DNA of 64,000 nucleotides. Origin: Escherichia coli. GTDB lineage: Bacteria > Pseudomonadota > Gammaproteobacteria > Enterobacterales > Enterobacteriaceae. Shown one piece after another: positions 1 through 939 of the stretch (within the stretch, counting starts at the first letter, position 1; the number at the start of each line of letters is the position of its first letter). The notes under the pieces were generated by a model. It had not been told where the DNA came from. It searched no databases and was given only the letters and a program-made list of their open reading frames with translations. The position numbers and the translations under genes were made by a program. Where the stretch lies: assembly GCF_044324785.1 (NCBI RefSeq), contig NZ_CP172127.1; one strand, 5' to 3'.

Positions 1-821
1 TGAATCAGCATGGATTTTCCCCTTCCCGCTCTGCGCGCGCTATGCGTGGGCAAAGCGATAAAGTGGTCGCCATCATTGTTACCCGTCTGGATTCGTTGTC
101 AGAAAATCTCGCCGTTCAAACCATGCTGCCAGCGTTCTATGAACAAGGTTACGATCCAATCATGATGGAAAGTCAGTTTTCCCCACAATTAGTTGCCGAA
201 CATTTGGGGGTGCTGAAACGGCGTAATATCGACGGCGTAGTGCTGTTCGGTTTTACCGGCATAACAGAAGAAATGTTAGCCCACTGGCAGTCATCGCTGG
301 TTCTGCTGGCGCGTGACGCAAAAGGCTTTGCTTCGGTCTGTTATGACGACGAAGGGGCAATCAAGATCCTGATGCAACGGCTGTATGACCAGGGGCATCG
401 TAATATCAGTTATCTCGGCGTGCCGCATAGTGACGTGACGACCGGTAAGCGACGTCACGAAGCCTACCTGGCGTTCTGCAAAGCGCATAAACTGCATCCC
501 GTTGCCGCTCTGCCAGGCCTTGCTATGAAGCAAGGCTATGAGAACGTAGCAAAAGTGATTACGCCTGAAACTACCGCGTTACTGTGCGCAACCGACACGC
601 TGGCACTTGGTGCAAGTAAATACCTGCAAGAGCAACGCATCGACACCTTGCAACTGGCGAGCGTCGGTAATACACCGTTAATGAAATTCCTCCATCCGGA
701 GATCGTCACCGTAGATCCCGGTTACGCCGAAGCTGGACGCCAGGCGGCCTGCCAGTTGATCGCGCAGGTAACCGGGCGCAGCGAACCGCAACAAATCATC
801 ATCCCCGCCACCCTGTCCTGA
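1..821 (+). CDS. treR: Trehalose operon repressor TreR (LacI/GalR family), 5' end truncated by window edge
   Basis: Frame is open from window start; translation ...NQHGFSPSRSARAMRGQSDKVVAIIVTRLDS... matches the ligand-binding domain of TreR as remembered; followed by treBC. Confidence 0.9.
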   Translation, partial: NQHGFSPSRSARAMRGQSDKVVAIIVTRLDSLSENLAVQTMLPAFYEQGYDPIMMESQFSPQLVAEHLGVLKRRNIDGVVLFGFTGITEEMLAHWQSSLVLLARDAKGFASVCYDDEGAIKILMQRLYDQGHRNISYLGVPHSDVTTGKRRHEAYLAFCKAHKLHPVAALPGLAMKQGYENVAKVITPETTALLCATDTLALGASKYLQEQRIDTLQLASVGNTPLMKFLHPEIVTVDPGYAEAGRQAACQLIAQVTGRSEPQQIIIPATLS

Positions 822-860
822 TCGTTTCCTGAACGATAAATTGTGATCTTCGCTGCGTTT

Positions 861-874
861 CGGGAACGTTCCCG
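861..874. promoter_or_regulatory. Perfect 14-bp palindrome CGGGAACGTTCCCG upstream of treB; candidate TreR operator
   Basis: Palindrome read directly in treR-treB spacer; a second inverted repeat ATCGTT-N5-AACGAT lies at about 821-837. Confidence 0.5.
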
Positions 875-939
875 TTTTTAAATTTTTCCGCGCAATATAT
901 TCTGCAGCCAACCAAAAATGTCATCTGCCATGGGGCTTT

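Follow-up and report, generated by a model that had tools for sequence, protein, structure and literature searches.

The 64,000-nucleotide stretch of Escherichia coli DNA that we analyzed, referred to here as the window, begins within treR and continues into treB and then treC, an order that agrees with the RefSeq annotation of the region (treR, trehalose operon repressor; treB, PTS trehalose EIIBC; then treC). The 3' part of treR, which encodes the LacI-family trehalose repressor, occupies positions 1-821 of the + strand (open reading frame 42-821, with the TGA stop codon at 819-821) and is 100% identical to the 'trehalose operon repressor TreR' of E. coli N3. Proteins nearly identical to TreR carry PF00356, PF00532 and PF13377, the first of which is the LacI helix-turn-helix (HTH). 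treB, the regulated gene, is an open reading frame at 940-2361 of the same strand, starts with an ATG at 940, and is listed by RefSeq as 'PTS trehalose transporter subunit IIBC'. The two genes are separated by a spacer of 118 nt. The segment 600-1100 matches E. coli chromosomes with 100% identity and was found in 5423 of 5426 complete E. coli genomes. Queries with 600-1100, 812-846 and 847-881 against the E. coli genome set also gave three matches on plasmid-classed records, and a few genomes with two copies of the treR-treB region. Identity within the E. coli population did not discriminate between two 35-mers from the end of treR and the spacer (812-846 and 847-881), which are identical in 4927 and 5035 of 5419 genomes, respectively.

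The spacer between treB and treC (2362-2410) has a palindrome of its own, a perfect 18-bp sequence, GGGGCGCAATTGCGCCCC, at 2370-2387. Of the 81 enterobacterial loci that we compared (see below), 68 have a perfect 7-bp G+C stem in this spacer. The stem is mostly GGGGCGC, with the fully complementary variants GGGGTGC, GGGGCCA and GGGGCCG, and the loops vary. Complementary stem variants combined with variable loops are the pattern of a conserved RNA hairpin. In E. coli there is no T-run after this hairpin, and a scan of 600-2600 against Rfam at a permissive threshold gave nothing relevant, including no match for the hairpin. It could perhaps be an intercistronic stabilizer, a processing site or a partial terminator.

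The spacer between treR and treB contains a perfect 14-bp palindrome, CGGGAACGTTCCCG, at 861-874 (unstranded), as reported in the initial annotation of this DNA. Both the sequence and a repeat finder confirm that it consists of two 7-nt arms that are 100% complementary and are not separated by a gap. The palindrome thus has an even length, is 100% symmetric over its 14 bp (CGGGAAC followed by GTTCCCG), and has a CG at its center (867-868). The center, at 867.5, is 72 nt before the treB ATG, and treR, the gene for a LacI-family regulator with an HTH, is directly upstream. Sites for regulators of the LacI family are even palindromes with a central CG, and most are 30-140 nt upstream of a start codon (PMC4052901). 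A perfect 14-mer palindrome as such is not rare within the window, since we observed six and first-order Markov simulations gave ~5.6. The expectation for finding one inside a given 118-nt spacer is ~0.007. A search of the spacer and the whole window for other TreR sites with three or fewer mismatches found none in or near the spacer, and the three weak, distant matches elsewhere in the window are at the level of chance (4 found, 3.25 expected).

Comparison with other species indicates which part of the palindrome is conserved. Using TreB, we retrieved another 80 loci, with each GTDB species represented once, for a total of 81 loci from about 19 named genera of Enterobacteriaceae. The core of the palindrome, GGGAACGTTCCC (862-873), is upstream of treB in 81 of 81 loci, without a substitution in any of its 12 columns. 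Mean top-base frequency in the rest of the treR-treB spacer is 0.49-0.53. The outer pair of the 14-mer (861/874) varies and is C..A in 71 loci and C..G in 7. Thus, the perfect 14-mer is a peculiarity of E. coli, and the conserved element is the 12-mer. The initial annotation had tied its reading of the palindrome to conservation in other enterobacterial treB promoters, and this conservation is borne out for the 12-bp core, with the outer pair variable.

The core is embedded in a larger block (842-903) that has no insertions or deletions across the 81 loci and in which TGTGATC, the palindrome, TTTT and a -10 hexamer are held in fixed register. TGTGATC (842-848) is invariant at all seven positions and would be the left half of a CRP-type site, a 22-mer at 839-860 (unstranded, centered at 849.5). 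The right half of this site, CTGCG, is poor and varies among the loci. We infer that CRP binds here from the consensus TGTGA-N6-TCACA and from the dependence of treBC on cAMP/CAP, which was reportedly described by Klein et al. in 1995. TGTGA and GGGAAC are exactly 15 nt apart in every one of the 81 loci, and TTTC precedes the core within the conserved block. Immediately downstream of the palindrome is the probable -35 region of treB, TTTTTA (875-880, + strand; T875-T878 are 91-100% conserved), located 17 bp upstream of the probable -10 hexamer, TATTCT (898-903, + strand; T898 is 96% conserved and A899 and T903 are 100% conserved). When the loci are anchored on the core, this hexamer stands in an otherwise variable stretch. 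These promoter elements were placed by conservation and not by a consensus scan. A scan of 600-1200 with the sigma-70 consensus found no promoter, as one would predict if the promoter depends on an activator and its -35 is weak. Judging from the position of the -10, transcription of treB probably starts near 910 (910-911). If so, the CRP-type site would be centered at about -61 (-60.5 to -61.5) and the palindrome at about -42. In class I CRP-dependent promoters the TGTGA-N6-TCACA site is centered near -61.5; a resemblance here would depend on a start at 910-911, and the right half-site is poor.

The motif is also found beyond the Enterobacteriaceae. A direct search for homologous proteins gave only close relatives, so distant homologues were obtained with a full-length TreR search of 50%-identity representatives, followed by look-up of the contigs that encode them. 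This gave treR-treB(-treC) loci beside TreR homologues of 36-49% identity in Orbus, Salinivibrio and metagenomes. The core is unchanged in Orbus hercynius (L084) and in two other loci (L083 and L087). In O. hercynius the spacing from TGTGA is the same 15 nt, and a TATATG -10 follows at 22 nt; the TGTGA-GGGAAC spacing in Salinivibrio is likewise 15 nt, and in L083 a CRP-like site is approximately two helical turns further upstream. This rigid CRP-TreR spacing in the 81 loci, Orbus and Salinivibrio may mean more than a shared promoter geometry.

Some of the distant loci have more than one operator-like site. The two Salinivibrio loci (L085 and L086) contain two slightly degenerate copies of the operator, TGGGAACGATTCCA and TGGGAACGTTACCA, 46 bp apart (L085:2806 and 2852). 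Another locus, L090, has two copies of TGGGAACGTTACCA upstream of the regulator gene itself, 58 bp apart (L090:619 and 677), and L091 carries GAGAACGTTCCCG. The treB-treC spacer of Salinivibrio also carries GGGAACGCTCCC (L085:4336). Together with the paired sites, which are separated by 46-58 bp, this points to auxiliary operators or to autoregulation in lineages other than the Enterobacteriaceae.

Among the distant homologues, the site follows the recognition helix of the regulator. The helix, KSTVSRV, is invariant among TreR homologues whose loci bear the motif. The sole homologue with a different helix (STATVSRA, in L089) has no operator motif, and no recognizable PTS or treB gene call follows it. 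One locus, L082 (Logan SRR18107613), was left out because its sequence is that of a Klebsiella-like treR-treB locus in which C has been converted to T. It reads GTTTTGGGAATGTTTTTATTTTG at the operator position and is probably an assembly of bisulfite-treated reads. Because of this conversion, the 'protein' that it appears to encode (P0126) is an artefact.

Based on our results, we consider it very probable that the palindrome at 861-874 is the TreR operator of treB and that a second inverted repeat in the spacer, at 821-837, is not an operator. The initial annotation had interpreted the 14-mer as a TreR site, and the comparisons above support that interpretation: the core is invariant in 81 loci and recurs beside distant TreR orthologues, its form is that of LacI-family sites, and it abuts the probable -35. 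Taken together, the sequence itself, its extreme conservation, the rigid register of the promoter and the co-occurrence with TreR-type recognition helices strongly support an operator function. The operator is an already-known element, and there is nothing new in its identification. In 1997, Horlacher & Boos reportedly located the binding site of purified TreR in a palindrome immediately before the treB -35, and trehalose-6-phosphate is said to be the inducer. We take 861-874 to be this palindrome, the TreR site at treBC.

The TreR(1) regulog of the Enterobacteriales comprises eight regulons and eight sites, with trehalose-6-phosphate as the effector (RegPrecise; PMC4052901 supplement), and the same effector is stated elsewhere (PMC3505978). 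According to PMC3505978, the RegulonDB entry for treBC contains two TreR operator sites. We found only one conserved TreR site in the 81 loci of Enterobacteriaceae, which agrees with RegPrecise rather than with the two sites reported for RegulonDB. The other annotated site may be at a place where our comparison shows no conserved motif. Full-text literature searches with the operator sequence, and for a TreR footprint or palindrome, found no paper that gives the footprint.

We postulate that TreR binds as a dimer, with one GGGAAC half-site on each side of the central CG. The operator would then sit between the CRP-type site (839-860) and the -35 region (875-880) of treB. Bound TreR would deny RNA polymerase access to the -35 and to the DNA upstream of it, by hindering sigma region 4 as well as the alpha C-terminal domain. 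It would also block the contact between CRP and polymerase, thereby breaking CRP-dependent activation. Trehalose-6-phosphate, the reported effector, would free the operator from TreR.

The second repeat, ATCGTT-N5-AACGAT, is on the + strand at 821-837 (ATCGTT at 821-826 and AACGAT at 832-837) and could fold into a small A/U-rich hairpin. The initial annotation described this repeat as overlapping the treR stop codon. The repeat is indeed present, but with the TGA at 819-821 the overlap is limited to the A that ends the stop codon. The window contains 28 inverted repeats of the 6-N5-6 type, compared to 17.8 ± 3.4 in simulations, and the one in the spacer is not significant. The chance of finding any 6-bp inverted repeat with a loop of 3-8 nt in 118 nt is about 0.16. 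The repeat is not conserved in the orthologous treB upstream regions: in the 81 loci, the most frequent base averages 0.53 over columns 822-841 and none of these 20 columns is invariant, the repeat sequence is absent beyond Escherichia and Citrobacter, and the sequence that follows the treR stop is unrelated in other genera. In two Enterobacter loci (L040 and L074), an insertion of roughly 1.8 kb separates the treR stop from a point ~12 nt upstream of TGTGA (L040:134-1990), and a third locus (L032) probably carries the same insertion. The inserted DNA has two opposite-strand open reading frames, of 159 and 230 amino acids, and it disrupts neither the CRP half-site nor the operator nor the -10. 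Because the promoter block survives this insertion, the sequence after the treR stop is not an obligatory part of the control region. We conclude that 821-837 is most likely either a chance repeat or a small, lineage-restricted hairpin at the 3' end of the treR message.

A hairpin at this position could have a function of its own, as a stabilizer or weak terminator at the 3' end of treR mRNA that is specific to Escherichia and Citrobacter. We regard this as unlikely, if not implausible. The E. coli RNA folds at -5 kcal/mol (z of -2.3), and in an alignment of 14 Escherichia and Citrobacter sequences 78% of the cells in the stem pair, a value that is much lower when the register is slid. Two pairs have changed on both sides (C-G/U-A at columns 10/18 and one U-A at 8/20), but the covariation is weak: one stem pair is broken in 7 of the 13 distinct sequences, Escherichia genome L002, a close relative, has already lost the stem, and the shuffle controls are only marginal (19-36 of 500). 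Leclercia and Silvania have hairpins at the same place (-9.7 and -10 kcal/mol, respectively) that are unrelated in sequence and are followed by TTTATTG. In E. coli the bases after the hairpin are AAATTG and not a U-tract. The idea that a hairpin, whatever its sequence, is conserved downstream of treR was also tested over the full set of 81 loci and rejected. Compared to shuffles, the 34 nt before TGTGA have a mean fold z of 0.01, and z is below -1 in only 12% of the loci.

A more elaborate possibility concerns the conserved block as a whole (842-903), a compact 65-bp unit held in rigid register from the Enterobacteriaceae to Orbus and Salinivibrio. The operator in this block may serve both as an anti-activator wedge, which would prevent contact of CRP with the alpha C-terminal domain instead of only covering the -35, and, as RNA transcribed from treR together with the T-run of the -35, as a terminator for treR. 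TreR bound to the DNA could also be a roadblock, and 821-837 would separately be a lineage-specific hairpin at the treR 3' end. If this were true, then a single element would end the message of the regulator and also control the operon. We consider this combination improbable.

It is quite improbable that the palindrome at 861-874 and TTTTTAAATTTTT function mainly or additionally as the intrinsic terminator of treR, with an RNA hairpin, CGGGA-ACGU-UCCCG, and a U-tract that would stop transcription before treB. The treR transcript has to end at some point within the 118-nt spacer, the run of T's that follows the palindrome is conserved, and a terminator scan scores 861-874 plus TTTTT as terminator-like. 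The hairpin folds at -7 kcal/mol, but this is weak and usual for its composition (z of -0.86, with 44 of 200 shuffles folding as well). The stem has 5 bp in E. coli and 4 bp in the majority variant, and it is not kept by compensatory change, as its sole variable pair (861/874), the closing pair, is an unpaired C.A in 71 of the 81 loci. Twelve core bases that never vary are the signature of recognition by a protein and not of a stem that tolerates compensation. In addition, the -35, spaced 17 bp from the -10 hexamer, is reason enough for TTTT to be conserved, and the motif persists upstream of the regulator gene itself in L090. These observations argue against termination as the main function; a secondary role as a terminator or roadblock for read-through from treR may exist.

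Finally, the proposal of the initial annotation that 821-837 is a second TreR operator, here an auxiliary site that would cooperate with the main one, is highly improbable and does not stand: two TreR sites at treBC are reportedly in RegulonDB (PMC3505978), pairs of sites 46-58 bp apart occur in Salinivibrio and L090, and a weak TreR-like sequence with a central CG, CCTGATCGTTTCCT (817-830), overlaps the repeat 44 bp from the main operator, but the repeat itself has the wrong geometry, with a 5-nt gap and no central CG where a match to GGGAACGTTCCC has a central CG and no gap. CCTGATCGTTTCCT is the best TreR-like alignment near the repeat and matches at only 9 of 14 positions and 8 of 12 in the core, a level reached by chance in ~220 nt (four mismatches in the 12-mer core have a binomial expectation of ~0.6 per 220 nt). 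Its central CG is missing in two Citrobacter species, there is no similarity in other genera, the position is occupied by the insertion in some Enterobacter with the promoter block intact, and RegPrecise has a single site per enterobacterial regulon.

The TreR operator of treBC is a characterized element of a textbook sugar regulon, and its identification here has little value as a discovery. Its value is that of a positive control, in that a reader with only the sequence can pick out a real operator. The analysis also corrects the over-reading of a second, chance-level palindrome. In addition, it provides a clean layout of the promoter, in which CRP half-site, operator, -35 and -10 keep constant distances from one another, and it defines the conserved operator as a 12-bp core.

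Several known types of element resemble the palindrome in part. Like an intrinsic terminator, 861-874 combines a stem-loop that contains G+C with a T-run. In contrast to terminators, the stem has only 4-5 bp, its outer pair is mostly lost, compensatory changes are absent, and its T-run is also the -35 region. The arrangement at treB is also similar to anti-activation by CytR and CRP, in which the site for a LacI-family repressor adjoins a CRP site in fixed register. However, TreR has a strong palindromic operator that sits between CRP and the -35, and not between two CRP dimers, and protein-protein cooperation between TreR and CRP would be speculative at treB. The operators of PurR (ACGCAAACGTTTGCGT) and Cra/FruR, like that of TreR, are palindromes of even length whose center contains a CG and resembles AACGTT, and they are alike in being bound by a dimer, through the HTH and a hinge helix, and in their position at 30-140 nt (PMC4052901). 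Compared to PurR and Cra, the half-site GGGAAC is specific to TreR, and the TreR operator is short, with a conserved core of 12-14 bp. The ligand of TreR is a sugar phosphate that acts as an inducer; PurR works with a corepressor instead. The closest known counterpart is the TreR operator of E. coli treBC itself (Horlacher & Boos 1997; RegulonDB; RegPrecise TreR(1)). The repeat at 821-837 is not part of that operator, and the palindrome at 861-874 corresponds to it in locus, gene pair and organism, with no difference between the two.
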